A stretch of DNA of 64,000 bases, taken from NCBI RefSeq assembly GCF_053078305.1, contig NZ_CP166879.1; one strand, given 5' to 3'. Shown here one piece after another: positions 9,471-45,400 of the stretch; the first letter of the stretch is position 1; each line of letters starts with the position of its first letter. Made by a program: the position numbers and the translations under genes. The notes beneath the pieces were generated by a model. That model did no database searches and had not been told where the DNA came from. It saw only the letters and a list, made by a program, of their open reading frames with translations.

Positions 9471-9484
9471 TTGTTTTTGATCAA
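9471..9484. promoter_or_regulatory. FNR-like site TTGTT-N4-ATCAA upstream of ydfZ
   Basis: One mismatch to TTGAT-N4-ATCAA; centred about 88 bp upstream of the ydfZ start. Confidence 0.3.
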
Positions 9485-9565
9485 GCTCACATCTTTTTTG
9501 ATGCATGCATGAGCCATAAGGCGGGGGAAAAGACTCTCACCCCGGATGGGATGAGAGGAAATGAA

Positions 9566-31399: not shown

Positions 31400-31559
31400 A
31401 TTATATTAGTTACAACATCCTATGAGCCTTTATCATTAACAGGTGCCACATGCAGCGCCTGTTAATGTTGTAATTTTGTAGGTAATTTGTAAGTAGCGTC
31501 TTGAGAATGTGATCGTAATCACGTTTAATAGGGCGACTTTTCCACGCCTGAAGATAACC

Positions 31560-36534: not shown

Positions 36535-37562
36535 TATGCGGCCTCCCGTTTTTTACCTGACGAAGCGGGTTTAACGGATGGCGGTGGCGTCATAAAGCGG
36601 GCATATTTTTGCCGCCGTAGATTACGTTCCAGCGCACAACGCAGGCGTCCATCAAACACCAGCACCGCCAGCAGCACGAGGCCCGCGATAAAATCGTTCC
36701 ACCATGCCGGAATGCGCAACAGCACCAGTACGCTATCGATCTGCGTCAGGAACCATGCGCCGAGTACCGCACCGATGATCGCACCGGAACCGCCGAGCAA
36801 ACTAATGCCGCCCAGCACGCAGGCTGCAATTGCTTTCATCTCCAGCCCAGTACCGGTCTGGTTGGGGATAAAACCAATCTGCGAAGCAAACACAATCCCC
36901 GCCAGTGCCGCCATGCAGCCGTTCAACGAAAATGCCACAATGCGAATGGCTTCCGTACGAACGCCCAGTTGACGAGCGCCCTGTAAATTATCGCCCGTGG
37001 CATAAAAACTGCGTCCAAACGCCGTCTTCGCCAGCAGCCAGGCCATAAATGCCACCAGAATTATCGTCAACCAACCAATTGCTGAAACGCCAAGCAGCAG
37101 CGGGGCGGAGAGCTGTTTCAGTTCGGCGGGTAACCCTTCAATCCATTTGCCGCCAGTCCACAGCAACATGATGCCTCTGTACAACCCTAACGTGCCAAGG
37201 GTGGCAACAATGGCAGGGATCTTTAGCCACGCGACCAGGACACCGTTGAAAAATCCCGCGAGCAAACCAAGCAGTAAAGTCGCGACACAAGCAACAGGTA
37301 GTGAATACCCCGCGTTCAGTAACATCCCCAACAGCACCGCGCACATTCCGGTAATCGAACCCACTGAAACATCAATATTGCGCGTAAGCATTACCAGCGT
37401 CGCGCCCATTGCCAGCAGGATCAGGATTTGCGCGCTGCTATAAACCATGGTCAGCGTTTGCACACTTAAATACTGGCGGTCGAGAAAACCGGGTAATACA
37501 AACAGCAGCACCACCGCCAGCAGTGCCGTGATTTCACGGTTGTTCTGAATAAACTTCAGCAT
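36534..37562 (-). CDS. lsrC: AI-2 ABC transporter permease
   Basis: 342-aa ORF. Confidence 0.9.
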
Positions 37563-39091
37563 GACGCCTCCTGACGCTGACTATCGCCGAAGGCAACGCG
37601 CATAATAGTCTCGACATTAATATCGCGCCCGGTCAGTGCAGAGTGGGTAATTTCGCCCTGATGCATCACATACACACGATCTGCCATCAGTTCGATCTCT
37701 TCCAGATCAGAGGAGATAAGCAGCACTGCCACATTCTGTGCGGCGATGCTGCGCAACAGCTGGTAGATATCATTACGGGCCGAGACATCCACGCCGCGCG
37801 TCGGCTCATCGACAATCAATGCTTGCGGCGAAGCTTCCAGGCATTTGGCAATGAGGATTTTTTGCTGGTTGCCACCGGATAATGTCCGTGCAGCTTGTTC
37901 CGGTTGGTTAAATTTAATATTCAGCGCCCGACGATATCGTTCCAGGGTGGCATTATCTTTCGCTGTTTTCGCCCAGAATCCACGAAGGTTATGAGTAAGG
38001 GCGCAGACGTTCCAGGCCAGCGAAGCATCGAGATTCAGTCCGGATGACTGGCGATCTTCCGGCAGATAAACGAGACCGCGCAGTAAACGTTCTCCAGTGG
38101 ATAATCTATTGATCTCTTTATCATTCAGCATAATGCGTCCGCCACGCAAAGTACGTAGACCATAGAGCGTCTCGGCCAGTTCTGTGCGTCCAGCACCCAC
38201 CAGCCCAGCCAGACCCAGAATTTCTCCGGCATTTAGCGTCATGCTGACATTCCTGAAACCTTCGCCAGTCAGATTTTCCAGTGTCAGCACCGACGTTCCT
38301 GCGGCATGTTGTGGGCGGTTGCCAGGTAACTCCAGCCATAATTTTTGGCTGGCAGAGAGCGATTTTTCCCGTACCGCTGGGGTGATGGCCTGAATAATGT
38401 CGTCGGTAGACAGTTCGCTGGTTTTGCCGCTTAAGGCGATGGTTCCGTCGCGCATCACGCTAATTCGATCGGCAATCTGGCGAATTTCCGGCAGCTTATG
38501 CGAGATAAAAACAATACCCACGCCAGTAGCAAGCAGCTCTTGCAAGCGAGTAAACAAGCGTTCGGTTTCCGCAGGGGTAAGCGAGGCGGTAGGTTCATCG
38601 AGGATCAGAATCCGCGAGTCGCGCATCAGCCCGCGGAGGATTTCCACCATTTGGCGATCGGCGACATCCAGCGATCCTGCCAGACTATGCAGATCAAACT
38701 GGCAGCCCAGCGCCGCCAGCAAGTTCTTCATTTTCTGCATGGAGAGCTGTTTTTTTGCCAGCCCAAACAGGATGTTTTCTTTTATCGACAGGCTTGGGAA
38801 AAGCAGCGGTTCCTGGGGAACGAGATAAATGCCCAACTGATGAGCATGAACTGGCGTTAATCTAGTGTAATTATTGCCCCCAATCTCCAGCGTACCGCTA
38901 TCAGCAGGGGTAATACCGGCAATAATCTTCATTAACGTCGATTTACCGGCACCATTGCCGCCGAGCAGGGCGTGGACCTCCCCCTGATGCAACGTAAAAT
39001 CGATGCCTTTCAGGACATTGACCCCTGAATACTGTTTATAAACCGAGCGGGCGCAAAGTAGCGGTAACGCGCGGGTATCACTCGTTTGCAT
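37556..39091 (-). CDS. lsrA: AI-2 ABC transporter ATP-binding protein (two ATPase domains)
   Basis: 511-aa ORF with duplicated Walker A motifs. Confidence 0.9.
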
Positions 39092-39122
39092 ATTTCCCCC
39101 GTTCAGTTTTGCAGGTGAGTTT

Positions 39123-39155
39123 TGAACAAATGTATTTCTGCTTTTAATTTGTTCA
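39123..39155. promoter_or_regulatory. Inverted repeat TGAACAAAT-N15-ATTTGTTCA in the lsrA/lsrR divergent promoter (candidate LsrR operator)
   Basis: Perfect 9-bp inverted repeat seen in sequence. Confidence 0.45.
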
Positions 39156-39251
39156 TAACCTTAGGTGGACATTGCACATATTTCCGACGAATAGATCACA
39201 ATTTATGCTATTTTGATTTTTACGGTTGCGTTTGTTCATACTTGTAGAGTC

Positions 39252-39275
39252 AAACTGTGGTTGCCATCACAGATA
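39252..39275. promoter_or_regulatory. CRP-like site cTGTGg-N6-TCACA in the lsr intergenic region
   Basis: Match to TGTGA-N6-TCACA. Confidence 0.5.
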
Positions 39276-39339
39276 TAAATGCGCAAGAACTGAACAATTG
39301 CATTAAAGATTTAAATATGTTCAAAGTGAAGAATGAATT

Positions 39340-40293
39340 ATGACAATCAACGATTCGGCAATTTCAGAACAGGGAATGTGTGAAGAAGAACAGGTCGCGC
39401 GGATCGCGTGGTTTTACTACCACGACGGGCTGACCCAGAGTGAGATCAGCGATCGTCTCGGCCTGACCCGTTTGAAAGTGTCGCGATTACTGGAGAAAGG
39501 GCATCAGTCCGGCATCATTCGCGTGCAGATTAATTCTCGCTTTGAAGGCTGTCTGGAATATGAAACACAATTACGTAGTCAGTTTTCGCTGCAACATGTC
39601 CGGGTGATCCCTGGGCTTGCGGATGCTGATGTCGGCGGGCGACTGGGGATAGGCGCGGCGCATATGTTGATGAGTTTACTTCAACCACAACAGATGCTGG
39701 CGATTGGTTTTGGCGAGGCAACCATGAATACGCTGCAACGCTTAAGTGGTTTTATTTCGTCACAGCAAATTCGCCTGGTCACGCTCTCCGGTGGCGTCGG
39801 TTCTTATATGACGGGTATCGGACAGCTTAACGCGGCGTGCAGTGTGAATATTATTCCGGCTCCGTTGCGGGCATCCTCCGCTGACATTGCCCGTACGCTA
39901 AAAAATGAAAATTGCGTCAAAGATGTTCTGTTAGCCGCGCAAGCAGCGGATGTGGCGATTGTCGGCATTGGGGCCGTGAGTCAACAAGACGACGCGACGA
40001 TCATTCGCTCCGGTTATATCAGCCAGGGCGAACAGTTAATGATTGGCCGAAAAGGGGCAGTTGGCGACATTTTAGGCTACTTTTTTGATGCAAAAGGTGA
40101 CGTTGTCACGGACATTAAAATACATAACGAACTGATTGGCTTACCTTTAAGCGCGCTGAAGACCATACCCGTCCGGGTTGGCGTGGCAGGGGGAGAAAAT
40201 AAAGCCGAAGCAATTGCCGCTGCAATGAAAGGCGGTTATATCAACGCACTGGTTACCGATCAGGACACAGCAGCGGCGATTTTACGTAATTAA
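39340..40293 (+). CDS. lsrR: lsr operon repressor (SorC family)
   Basis: 317-aa ORF. Confidence 0.9.
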
Positions 40294-40371: not shown

Positions 40372-41964
40372 ATGGCTCGACTCTTTACCCCTTCAGAATC
40401 AAAGTACTACCTGATGGCGCTGGATGCAGGCACCGGAAGTATTCGGGCTGTGATATTCGACCTGGAAGGCAATCAAATAGCAGTGGGACAGGCGGAGTGG
40501 CGGCATCTGGCAGTACCGGACGTTCCTGGTTCTATGGAATTTGATCTCAACAAAAACTGGCAACTGGCGTGTGAGTGTATGCGTCAGGCGTTGCACAACG
40601 CCTGCATAGCCCCGGAGTATATCGCTGCCGTTTCGGCATGTTCGATGCGTGAAGGCATTGTTTTATATAACAATGAAGGAACACCGATCTGGGCCTGCGC
40701 CAATGTGGATGCCAGAGCGGCGCGCGAAGTTAGCGAACTTAAAGAACTGCACAACAATACCTTTGAAAACGAAGTTTATCGCGCGACCGGACAAACACTG
40801 GCTTTAAGTGCCATCCCCAGATTACTTTGGCTGGCGCACCATCGTTCCGATATTTACCGTCAGGCATCAACCATCACCATGATCAGCGACTGGCTGGCCT
40901 ATATGCTCAGCGGCGAACTTGCGGTGGATCCCTCTAACGCTGGCACCACGGGACTTCTTGATCTAACCATCCGTGACTGGAAACCTGCATTGCTGGATAT
41001 GGCTGGCCTGCGTGCCGATATTCTTTCTCCTGTCAAAGAAACCGGCACATTGCTGGGCGTGGTAAGTTCACAAGCGGCGGAACTCTGCGGTCTGAAGGTG
41101 GGCACTCCGGTGGTCGTTGGAGGAGGCGACGTGCAGCTTGGTTGCCTGGGGTTAGGCGTTGTGCGTCCGGCACAAACCGCGGTTCTTGGCGGCACATTCT
41201 GGCAGCAAGTTGTAAATTTAGCCGCGCCGGTGACAGACCCAGAAATGAACGTGCGCGTTAATCCTCATGTTATTCCTGGCATGGTACAAGCTGAATCTAT
41301 AAGCTTTTTTACCGGACTCACCATGCGCTGGTTCCGCGATGCTTTCTGTGCCGAAGAAAAACTGATTGCCGAACGTTTAGGCATCGACACCTATACGCTG
41401 CTGGAAGAGATGGCCAGTCGGGTGCCGCCTGGGTCGTGGGGCGTAATGCCGATCTTCTCCGACAGAATGCGCTTTAAAACCTGGTATCACGCTGCGCCTT
41501 CCTTTATTAATTTGTCCATTGACCCGGATAAATGTAACAAAGCGACATTGTTCCGTGCGCTGGAAGAAAATGCGGCGATTGTATCAGCGTGTAACTTGCA
41601 GCAAATTGCTGATTTTTCGAATATTCATCCTTCATCGTTAGTCTTTGCAGGCGGAGGTTCAAAAGGGAAATTATGGAGTCAAATTCTCGCTGATGTCTCG
41701 GGATTACCCGTCAATATTCCGGTGGTCAAAGAAGCCACTGCATTAGGATGTGCCATTGCAGCTGGCGTCGGTGCCGGAATTTTTTCATCAATGGCAGAAA
41801 CCGGAGAACGCCTGGTTCGCTGGGAACGGACGCACACACCAGACCCGGAAAAGCATGAACTTTATCAGGATTCACGCGATAAGTGGCAGGCAGTTTATCA
41901 GGATCAGCTGGGGCTGGTTGATCATGGACTGACGACGTCGTTATGGAAAGCGCCTGGGTTATAG
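40372..41964 (+). CDS. lsrK: Autoinducer-2 kinase (FGGY family)
   Basis: 530-aa ORF. Confidence 0.9.
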
Positions 41965-42494: not shown

Positions 42495-45400
42495 ATGAAT
42501 AGAATCTATCGCGTGATATGGAATTGCACTCTACAGGTATTTCAGGCCTGCTCTGAATTAACTCGCAGGGTAGGTAAAACATCAACGGTTAATTTGCGTA
42601 AATCCTCTGGACTGACAACGAAATTCAGTAGATTGACGCTGGGTGTTTTGCTGGCACTAAGCGGTTCAGTGTCTGGTGCGAGTCTGGAAGTTGATAATGG
42701 TCAGATTACCAATATTGATACTGATGTTGCTTATGATGCCTACCTGGTTGGCTGGTATGGCACTGGAGTGCTTAATATTTTGGCTGGCGGTAATGCCGCC
42801 TTAACCACTATTACTACCAGCGTCATTGGCGGTAATGAGGATTCGGAGGGTACCGTTAATGTTTTGGGTGGCACCTGGCGATTGTATGATAGTGGAAATA
42901 ATGCAAGGCCTTTAAATGTGGGTCAATCCGGAACGGGGACGCTGAATATTAAACAGAAGGGTCACGTCGATGGAGGCTATTTAAGATTAGGTACACAAGC
43001 TGCAGGCGTCGGGACGGTTAATGTTGAGGGAGAGGACTCGGTTTTGACGACCGAATTATTCGAAATAGGGAGTTACGGTACGGGCTCATTAAATATTACG
43101 GATAAGGGTTACGTCACGAGTTCAATAGTCGCCATTTTAGGATATCAAGCGAACAGTAATGGTAAGGTTGTCGTTGAAAAGGGTGGCGAGTGGCTAATAA
43201 AAAATAATGATTCCTCAATTGAATTTCAAATTGGTAATCAAGGAACTGGGGAGGCGACTATTCGCGAGGGTGGGCTGATTACGGCTGAAAATACGATTAT
43301 CGGTGGCAATGCCACCGGTATCGGAACCCTGAATGTGGAGGATCAAGACTCTGTCATCACGGTACGCAGACTCTATAATGGATATTTCGGTAATGGCACA
43401 GTCAATATTTCCAATAATGGACTGATTAATAACAAAGAATATTCATTGGTGGGCGTTCAGGACGGTTCCCACGGTGTCGTCAACGTGACCGATAAAGGGC
43501 ATTGGAATTTCCTCGGAACGGGCGAAGCTTTCCGCTATATCTATATCGGTGATGCTGGCGACGGTGAACTTAATGTCTCGAGTGAAGGCAAAGTAGATTC
43601 GGGAATTATCACTGCGGGGATGAAAGAAACAGGCACAGGCAACATTACTGTTAAGGATAAGAACTCCGTTATCACTAATCTCGGAACTAATCTTGGTTAT
43701 GACGGCCACGGCGAAATGAATATCAGTAATCAGGGGCTTGTTGTCAGCAACGGAGGAAGTTCACTCGGTTATGGAGAAACCGGCGTCGGGAATGTCAGCA
43801 TCACCACGGGGGGAATGTGGGAGGTCAATAAGAATGTCTATACCACCATTGGTGTTGCGGGCGTCGGAAACCTCAATATTAGCGATGGCGGTAAGTTCGT
43901 ATCGCAAAATATTACTTTTTTGGGTGATAAAGCAAGCGGTATCGGCACATTGAACCTGATGGATGCGACATCGTCGTTCGATACTGTGGGTATCAATGTC
44001 GGTAATTTTGGTAGCGGTATCGTAAATGTCAGTAATGGTGCCACCCTTAATTCAACGGGCTATGGATTTATCGGAGGAAATGCCTCCGGTAAGGGAATAG
44101 TTAATATTTCAACGGATAGTCTCTGGAATTTAAAGACGTCTTCTACTAACGCCCAATTGCTACAGGTCGGTGTATTAGGCACGGGTGAACTGAATATTAC
44201 CACCGGAGGTATAGTTAAAGCGCGTGATACACAGATAGCTCTCAATGACAAAAGTAAGGGCGACGTGAGGGTGGATGGGCAGAACTCTCTTCTTGAAACA
44301 TTCAATATGTACGTAGGGACATCTGGTACGGGTACGTTAACCCTGACGAATAGCGGCACGCTGAATGTCGAAGGTGGAGAAGTTTACTTAGGTGTTTTTG
44401 AACCTGCTGTAGGAACGCTAAACATTGGTGCAGCTCACGGTGAGGCGGCGGCAGATGCCGGATTTATCACTAACGCGACGAAAGTAGAGTTTGGCTCTGG
44501 CGAAGGTGTTTTTGTCTTTAATCATACCAATAACAGTGATGCCGGCTACCAGGTCGATATGCTGATTACAGGTGACGATAAAGACGGAAAAGTGATCCAT
44601 GATGCAGGCCATACGGTGTTCAATGCAGGGAATACTTATAGCGGTAAAACGCTGGTCAATGACGGCCTCCTGACCATTGCGTCTCATACGGCAGATGGGG
44701 TAACGGGCATGGGGTCGAGTGAAGTAACCATTGCAAACCCCGGTACGCTCGACATTCTCGCATCAACGAACAGTGCAGGAGATTACACGCTGACCAATGC
44801 GCTCAAAGGCGATGGCTTGATGCGAGTGCAGCTGTCATCCTCCGACAAGATGTTTGGCTTTACCCATGCAACAGGGACTGAATTCGCCGGTGTTGCCCAA
44901 TTTAAAGACAGTACCTTCACTTTGGAACGCGACAACACCACAGCGCTTACTCACGCGATGTTGCAGTCTGACAGTGAAAATACCACATCGGTAAAAGTTG
45001 GAGAGCAATCCATTGGTGGACTGGCCATGAATGGAGGTACCCTCATTTTCGATACGGATATTCCTGCTGCGACGCTTGCCGAGGGATATATCAGCGTCGA
45101 TACGCTGGTTGTCGGCGCGGGTGACTACACCTGGAAAGGCCGTAACTATCAGGTAAACGGGACGGGTGACGTGCTTATCGACGTGCCTAAACCGTGGAAT
45201 GATCCCATGGCGAATAACCCTCTGACGACGCTCAATTTGCTGGAACACGATGATAGCCATGTCGGCGTTCAACTGGTGAAGGCGCAAACGGTTATTGGGT
45301 CAGGTGGCTCATTAACGTTACGTGATTTACAGGGCGACGAGGTGGAAGCGGACAAAACGTTACACATTGCGCAAAACGGAACGGTGGTCGCCGAGGGTGA

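Follow-up and report, generated by a model that had tools for sequence, protein, structure and literature searches.

Divergent CRP-dependent control regions of sugar catabolism, in which CRP is paired with a repressor specific to the pathway, form a general class. The lsr control region resembles this class in having a local repressor that is released by its ligand, here a phosphorylated, sugar-like molecule, and that works jointly with the global activator CRP at a bidirectional promoter region, and in placing the repressor gene under the same control. It differs from the class in its ligand, a quorum-sensing signal, in its repressor, a member of the SorC family, and in its proposed operators, which are 33 bp long and lie ~83 bp apart.

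The closest described system is the lsrR-lsrA region of Escherichia coli K-12. Binding of LsrR in this region (to both promoter regions, according to secondary sources), repression of both operons and relief of that repression by phospho-AI-2 are documented in the literature. Repression of the two lsr operons has been attributed to two "boxes" in the lsrA-lsrR gap, within which the elements are drawn, from lsrR to lsrA, in the order p-lsrR-boxes, CRPII, then CRPI and finally p-lsrA-boxes, and mutations in the p-lsrR-box raise lsr expression (PMC5137460, Fig. 2 for the order). The motifs of the p-lsrR-box are AACAAT and AAGATTTAA, and those of the p-lsrA-box are AAAACT and AAAACTGAA, as quoted from Xue 2009 (PMC8487509). 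In its later papers the footprinting group characterises LsrR sites by a loose A/T-richness, not by a TGAACA-N21-TGTTCA palindrome. In the open literature consulted, the K-12 region is described by short A/T-rich LsrR motifs, with an lsrA-side box that stands beside the palindrome considered below. Deletion of crp abolishes lsr expression, lsrR is also CRP-dependent, and the CRP sites in the lsrA-lsrR gap are reported to be conserved in Enterobacteriaceae (bioRxiv 10.64898/2026.06.09.730415).

A second relevant system is Bacillus subtilis DeoR, whose effector is deoxyribose-5-phosphate where that of LsrR is phospho-AI-2. The LsrR palindrome and the DeoR operator, ATTGAACAAAATTTCAATTACCAATTTACATATGTTCAA, share their outer arms, and the base-specific contacts made by DeoR fall in 5'-TTGAACA-3' (PMC11229326). 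The full operator is bound by a DeoR tetramer, while half-operators alone bind poorly (PMC11229326).

The locus analysed here lies in a 64,000-nucleotide stretch of contig NZ_CP166879.1 (assembly GCF_053078305.1), referred to as the window. A preliminary description, made from the sequence alone, had placed the interval 39092..39339 between the divergent lsr operons. This gene assignment was upheld by the list of open reading frames, NCBIfam models and RefSeq annotation, and the interval is exactly the 248-bp intergenic region (33% G+C) between lsrA on the minus strand and lsrR on the plus strand:

37556..39091, minus strand: lsrA, 511-aa open reading frame, first gene of lsrACDBFG, encoding the AI-2 ABC transporter ATPase
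39340..40293, plus strand: lsrR, 317-aa open reading frame, encoding the SorC/DeoR-subfamily repressor
40372-41964: lsrK, 530-aa open reading frame, next after lsrR
39096..39100, minus strand: lsrA Shine-Dalgarno sequence, GGGGG here and GGAGG in other genera

All three gene products exceeded the cut-offs of their NCBIfam equivalog models (LsrR against NF011947, 618.8 bits with a cut-off of 486; LsrA against NF011967, 954 bits with a cut-off of 586; LsrK, 998 bits with a cut-off of 528). LsrR matched the solved LsrR structures 4GO1/4L5I with an E value of 1e-202, and the RefSeq annotation of near-identical E. coli records agrees on the identities of lsrA and lsrR. The same 601-bp stretch, annotated with lsrA and lsrR, is found in 4187 of 5426 complete E. 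coli genomes, and the neighbouring genes (tam, lsrGFBDCA, lsrRK, an autotransporter gene and hipBA) match those of the E. coli chromosome. The K-12 region is the same locus, with the same divergent lsrRK/lsrACDBFG layout and the same order of boxes as in Fig. 2 of PMC5137460. Only four intergenic positions distinguish it from the window (39221, 39240, 39243 and 39282), none of them within an operator arm or a CRP core, and there is no functional difference between the two. The interval is thus the already known E. coli control region between the AI-2 import genes and the gene for their repressor. As first filed, the finding identifies once more a textbook control region of quorum sensing and contains nothing new, LsrR repression and cAMP-CRP activation of the divergent lsr operons having already been published (PMC5137460; bioRxiv 10.64898/2026.06.09.730415).

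The preliminary description had also reported a perfect 9-bp inverted repeat with a 15-bp spacer at 39123..39155, and this is present exactly as claimed: TGAACAAAT (39123-39131) and ATTTGTTCA (39147-39155) are perfectly complementary across a 15-bp spacer. Pairing continues outward to give 13-nt arms in which 12 of 13 positions are paired (39119-39131 and 39147-39159). The repeat represents a 33-bp unit, TGAACA-N21-TGTTCA, that is found again upstream of lsrR, 17-49 bp from its start codon. The two copies are called O_A and O_R:

39123..39155, no strand assigned: O_A, TGAACAAATGTATTTCTGCTTTTAATTTGTTCA, proposed lsrA-side LsrR operator, with the extended palindrome at 39119-39159
39291..39323, no strand assigned: O_R, TGAACAATTGCATTAAAGATTTAAATATGTTCA, second copy of the 33-bp unit, lsrR-side LsrR operator

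Both copies contain TTGAACA...TGTTCA(T/A); they are 76% identical and their starts are 168 bp apart. TGAACA-N21-TGTTCA occurs twice in the 64 kb of the window, both times within the 248-bp gap, compared with an expectation of 0.01. Exact TGAACA/TGTTCA hexamers number five in the 248 bp, compared with 0.18 expected, and the fifth of these (39233-39238) forms the right arm of a third unit, now decayed, which spans 39206-39238.

Could the repeat, and the CRP-like match reported together with it, simply be chance features of an A/T-rich intergenic region? Taken singly, each is statistically unremarkable. Shuffling of the interval produced a perfect inverted repeat (9 bp or longer, loop of 3-40 bp) in 5% of cases, and one-mismatch CRP cores are common: with matches counted by consensus only, TGTGA-N6-TCACA with at most one mismatch occurs five times in the window, compared with 2.0 expected. 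The two elements nevertheless go beyond chance because the unit is duplicated, the hexamers are enriched and both elements are conserved across genera. With the 33-bp architecture present twice (0.01 expected) and conserved in more than 10 genera at fixed positions, a chance origin is refuted and its probability is negligible.

Conservation was assessed in 26 lsrR loci from a species-level genome collection and in six more obtained by protein look-up. The gap is 248-251 bp long and the alignment nearly gapless in Escherichia, Citrobacter, Kluyvera, Superficieibacter, Izhakiella, Serratia, Mangrovibacter and Edwardsiella. O_A is present in all 32 related loci examined, and its arms contain no mismatch in any locus except that of Enterobacter cancerogenus (AGAACA). 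O_A and O_R occur together at fixed positions, with zero or one arm mismatch, in the genera just listed and in Salmonella and Pantoea; O_A alone reaches this level in Photorhabdus, Morganella, Buttiauxella, Atlantibacter and Enterobacter. The clade farthest away, made up of Buttiauxella, Atlantibacter and Enterobacter cancerogenus and ~65% identical in LsrR, keeps O_A and has a weaker O_R (CGAACA...AGTTCA). Majority fractions and invariant columns, calculated over 12 genus-level representatives, were as follows:

O_A arms: majority fraction 0.97 (left) and 0.92 (right); invariant columns 8/12 and 8/10
O_R arms: majority fraction 0.90 and 0.90; invariant columns 9/12 and 9/14
Linkers: majority fraction 0.49-0.70; invariant columns 0-5 per linker
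Published p-lsrA-box span, 39102-39122: majority fraction 0.58; invariant columns 1/21

The p-lsrA-box span is the least conserved stretch adjoining the operators and is not recognisable outside Escherichia in the cross-genus alignment, in which the CCTCC block of the lsrA Shine-Dalgarno sequence is kept. Judged from this alignment, the conserved lsrA-side element is the palindrome and not the published p-lsrA-box motifs. As the operator arms do not vary, conservation alone cannot tell which protein reads them.

The published boxes relate differently to the two palindromes. On the lsrR side the box maps inside O_R, with AACAAT at 39293-39298 and AAGATTTAA at 39306-39314. On the lsrA side the motifs (39102-39123) touch only the first base of the O_A repeat:

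39118-39123, minus strand: AAAACT of the p-lsrA-box, between O_A and the lsrA ribosome-binding site
39102-39110, minus strand: AAAACTGAA of the p-lsrA-box, in the same stretch

Reading the inverted repeat as an LsrR site, as had been proposed, is in line with the published motifs to the extent that the lsrR-side box lies inside O_R, and departs from them in that the lsrA-side box lies beside O_A. Measured against the refuting condition named in the preliminary description, the literature thus fails to put the lsrA-side LsrR site cleanly on the repeat. The repeat remains best read as an LsrR operator, but the copy that has both motif and mutational support, O_R, had been overlooked. When the literature was searched for accounts of a palindrome or operator recognised by LsrR, only unrelated papers came up.

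LsrR is homologous to B. subtilis DeoR (8R7Y; E 3e-28), and the recognition helices of the two proteins are similar (TRLKVSRLL in LsrR, SRPTVSRLL in DeoR). The DeoR and lsr operators are both long composites with outer TTGAACA...TGTTCAA arms and an A/T-rich interior. They differ in the gap between the outer arms, which is 24 bp for DeoR and 21 bp for lsr, and in their inner elements: the left half of the DeoR operator is a clear palindrome, TTGAA-N6-TTCAA, whereas the inner elements of the LsrR sites are degenerate. DeoR also has a single operator, at -60..-21, whereas the lsr region has two or three, interleaved with CRP sites. Because of the homology with DeoR, the conservation, and the experimentally supported box held by O_R, O_A is the best candidate for the lsrA-side LsrR operator.

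A different view of the lsrA side is that LsrR makes contact only at the p-lsrA-box (39102-39123) and that the palindrome is kept for some other reason, perhaps because a different regulator binds there. The motifs are credited to the DNase I footprints and mutagenesis of Xue 2009 (quoted in PMC8487509), and AAAACT is reported by the same authors to matter for the binding of LsrR at ahpCF (PMC8487509), both of which speak for this view. However, it would place the operator in a poorly conserved span (0.58, 1/21 columns invariant) that is lost from recognition beyond Escherichia, while the neighbouring palindrome shares its architecture with O_R, the holder of the other published box, and matches the outer arms of the DeoR operator. 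We consider exclusive contact at the p-lsrA-box improbable, and an original footprint wider than the two motifs would allow both readings to hold.

Our main reading, to which we give a probability of about 0.8, is that the interval is a bidirectional lsr control region in which the LsrR operators O_A and O_R, together with a decayed copy O_C, are accompanied by two CRP sites between them. By analogy with B. subtilis DeoR, each operator would be bound by one LsrR tetramer (a dimer of dimers), whose conserved recognition helix would read the two strong outer arms while the inner DNA-binding domains read the A/T-rich centre. The promoter core of lsrR would be covered by O_R, and that of lsrA would either be covered by O_A or lie just upstream of it. 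Because the operators overlie or adjoin the promoter cores in this way, bound LsrR would block both transcription units. LsrR is released by phospho-AI-2, which LsrK makes.

A role for the inverted repeat in RNA, where it would form a hairpin in the leader of lsrA and influence stability or translation, was weighed against this operator reading. The 9-bp stem is present in the minimum-energy fold of the lsrA strand (-12.3 kcal/mol), but the fold is unexceptional (z = -1.17), with 27 of 200 shuffles folding at least as well, and it has a long, A/U-rich loop of 15 nt. In the alignment the arms do not vary and show no compensatory changes, and there was no Rfam match at E <= 1. Moreover, an equivalent unit lies upstream of lsrR and a third in non-transcribed spacer. 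Action as an RNA hairpin is accordingly very improbable. A terminator or structured RNA element was likewise rejected, there being no terminator-like site, no Rfam match and no covariation.

The second element of the preliminary description was a TGTGG-N6-TCACA CRP-like site at 39252..39275. The site is present, its 16-bp core (39256..39271) matching TGTGA-N6-TCACA at 9 of 10 core positions, although the 22-bp frame is 39253..39274 and the span first given was slightly wide. The order of boxes in Fig. 2 of PMC5137460 identifies it as CRPII. CRPI was assigned to 39182-39203 because PMC5137460 puts that site beside TGTGCAAT (39171-39178). The elements of this part of the interval, with the candidate promoter hexamers, are:

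39253..39274, no strand assigned: CRPII (by assignment), AACTGTGGTTGCCATCACAGAT, core 39256-39271, centre 39263.5; the site reported first
39182..39203, minus strand: CRPI (by assignment), AATTGTGATCTATTCGTCGGAA on the lsrA strand, centre 39192.5, matching 6 of 10 core positions
39171..39178, minus strand: TGTGCAAT, site of published promoter-up mutations, read as a CytR half-site (PMC5137460)
39158..39163, minus strand: candidate lsrA -10, TAAGGT (TAnnGT), with its T, A and T positions invariant in the alignment
39293..39298, plus strand: candidate lsrR -10, AACAAT in the left arm of O_R, proposed from geometry

The logic of cAMP-CRP activation put forward earlier matches the literature, but the site chosen for it is the lsrR-proximal one of two, is probably tied to lsrR rather than lsrA, and CRPI had been missed.

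Across genera, TCACAG of CRPII is invariant and TGTGG nearly so. In CRPI the distal half is perfect (AATTGTGATCTA) and the promoter-proximal half is poor, and conservation follows the same division: GATCAC is invariant, and 8 of 11 columns are invariant in the GATCAC(A/G)TTT half, compared with 1 of 11 in the other half. The distance from TCAC(A/G) of CRPII to the start of O_R is 24 bp and that from the start of O_A to GATCAC of CRPI is 71 bp, both fixed in E. coli, Salmonella and Buttiauxella. CRPII is 27.5 bp from O_R and CRPI 37.5 bp from O_A, and neither spacing changes across genera.

From the candidate -10 hexamers, lsrA is predicted to start near 39151, which would put CRPI at -41.5 and O_A at -4..+29. 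The predicted start of lsrR is near 39305, which would put CRPII at -41.5 and O_R at -14..+19. In the most economical reading, each CRP site would serve the nearer promoter as a class II-type site, near -41.5 of the predicted start. A scan with the sigma-70 consensus identified no promoter within the gap, as expected for weak, activator-dependent promoters, and the literature searched yielded nothing usable on mapped lsrA or lsrR transcription starts. For the candidate lsrR -10, AACAAT, conservation is inseparable from that of the O_R arm.

Alternatively, CRPII might be the main activator of lsrA, acting from far upstream, with CRPI minor or non-functional. CRPII is by far the better match to the consensus (9/10 compared with 6/10 for CRPI) and both of its halves are conserved; CRP is essential for expression of the lsr operon, and mutations as distant as O_R affect expression in the lsrA direction. 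Yet CRPII would stand at about -112.5 from the predicted lsrA start (39151), outside the standard positions for activation, and 71 bp (6.8 helical turns) separate it from CRPI. It keeps a fixed spacing to O_R (24 bp) and not to O_A, whereas GATCAC of CRPI is invariant and 71 bp from O_A in every genus examined. We regard activation of lsrA mainly from CRPII as unlikely, though deserving of consideration, and favour CRPI as the probable site for lsrA and CRPII as that for lsrR.

Between the two operators lies a third, central operator-like copy:

39206..39238, no strand assigned: O_C, TGCTAT...N21...TGTTCA, decayed, with only the right arm, TTTGTTCATA (39231-39240), intact here

The right arm of O_C is a 10-bp direct repeat of the right arm of O_A, 83 bp away, and O_C ends 2 bp from CRPI. 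Using a 39-bp operator matrix built from the O_A and O_R sites, O_C was the third-best match, at position 115-120, in every intergenic region of the three-operator clade, and it scored far above the fourth-best match. Its significance was estimated from shuffles of the central 125 bp, which gave p values from 0.0005 to 0.04:

Salmonella O_C: matrix score 20.3
Serratia O_C: matrix score 19.2, shuffle p 0.0005
Edwardsiella O_C: matrix score 15.9, shuffle p 0.0005
O_C of this window: matrix score -4.6, shuffle p 0.0135
K-12 O_C: matrix score -9.8, shuffle p 0.0375

Salmonella, Serratia and Edwardsiella carry a strong O_C, whereas that of E. coli has decayed. O_A and O_C are 83 bp apart in nine genera (82 bp in Pantoea), across intervening sequence that is poorly conserved, and O_C and O_R are 81-85 bp apart. 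No description of O_C was found in the open literature searched, and O_C may be a new detail. Literature searches on DNA looping by LsrR gave nothing usable.

These observations lead us to suggest, tentatively and at somewhat under even odds, that the true LsrR operator is a 33-35-bp palindrome, TTGAACA-N19-TGTTCAA, and not the short A/T-rich motifs, and that the ancestral region had three of these operators, all on the same face of the helix and with two CRP sites interspersed; in E. coli the central operator would have lost its left arm. If this is correct, LsrR at O_C could oppose CRP directly, because O_C abuts CRPI, or three tetramers could act cooperatively. The three-operator arrangement would also explain why lsrA promoter-up mutations cluster in O_R: 12 of 14 up-mutants in the lsrA direction were changed within O_R (39299-39305), 145 bp upstream of O_A (PMC5137460). 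These mutations may relate to the third operator, but they could equally create a new promoter.

Comparison across genera yields a sharper definition of the LsrR operator, one that can be tested. The recently proposed LsrR targets cysP, cysN, ahpCF, katG and fim were assigned by loose A/T-rich motifs, and a palindromic 33-bp consensus would provide a stricter filter for such claims. The possible third operator and the fixed spacing between operators and CRP sites are also relevant to engineering of the lsr promoter as a synthetic-biology switch.

Finally, the octamer TGTGCAAT beside CRPI is not conserved, with 0 of 8 columns invariant, and the reported changes TGTACAAT and TGTGTAAT both shift the hexamer TGCAAT toward TATAAT. 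Because the octamer is unconserved and both mutations approach TATAAT, the reading of this site as a CytR half-site seems less economical than improvement of a -10 element.

A third copy of the operator-like TGAACA-N21-TGTTCA unit is present in the gap between lsrA and lsrR, in addition to the two full 33-bp units proposed as LsrR operators (O_A nearer lsrA and O_R nearer lsrR). Central units were located as follows:

Window 39206-39238, E. coli: central third copy, 83 bp from O_A and abutting CRPI, the CRP-like site nearer lsrA
Locus 1364-1396, starting at intergenic position 119, Salmonella (L028): central 33-bp unit
Intergenic position 118, Serratia (L014): central unit
Intergenic position 120, Edwardsiella (L026): central unit

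The copies of Salmonella, Serratia and Edwardsiella are strong, and that of E. coli has a decayed left arm (TGCTAT). Across loci the distance from O_A to the central copy is kept, but the sequence of the linker between them is not. The central operator is absent from the gap in a clade with a divergent LsrR (~65% identity), comprising Buttiauxella, Enterobacter cancerogenus and Atlantibacter (L019-L025, L032, L033), where the gap itself is shorter. Here O_A lies 14 bp (Buttiauxella) or 15 bp (Atlantibacter) from the lsrA start codon and O_R is degenerate (CGAACA...AGTTCA). The spacings from CRP site to operator, measured in Buttiauxella, are unchanged.

Most of the published up-mutants of the lsrA-direction promoter (PlsrA) fall in 39299-39305, within O_R, at a distance of 145 bp upstream from O_A. 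There are two possible readings: O_R acts on PlsrA from afar, or the up-mutations make a new promoter in the lsrA direction, which for the changes at 39299-39305 would be TTGAAC-N17-GCAATT on the minus strand. Up-mutations have also been published at a site near CRPI:

39171-39178, lsrA strand: octamer TGTGCAAT

The changes TGTACAAT and TGTGTAAT of the lsr promoter were ascribed to a CytR half-site (PMC5137460). Each of them also brings the hexamer TGCAAT closer to the -10 consensus TATAAT, and GTGATC, located 17 bp upstream of this hexamer, is a possible -35 element. The octamer is not conserved, with none of its eight columns invariant across genera.

Only 4187 of the 5426 complete E. coli genomes carry the region 38900-39500. 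None holds an identical copy and the highest identity is 99.5%, indicating that the lineage of the window is not exactly represented in this collection. The closest complete genome is that of E. coli strain 720632 (L034), in which the end of the lsr operon carries an inserted IS4 transposase, located between tam and lsrG (L034 12908-14236).

Downstream of lsrK, the window contains an autotransporter gene, annotated in strain 720632 as an ECSE_1600 family autotransporter:

42495-47915: intact autotransporter ORF, 1806 aa

The gene at the same position in K-12 is annotated as a frameshifted pseudogene. Elsewhere in the window, four further matches to TGTGA-N6-TCACA with one mismatch were observed:

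9476-9491: CRP-like core
31508-31523: CRP-like core, TGTGATCGTAATCACG
60399-60414: CRP-like core
60613-60628: CRP-like core
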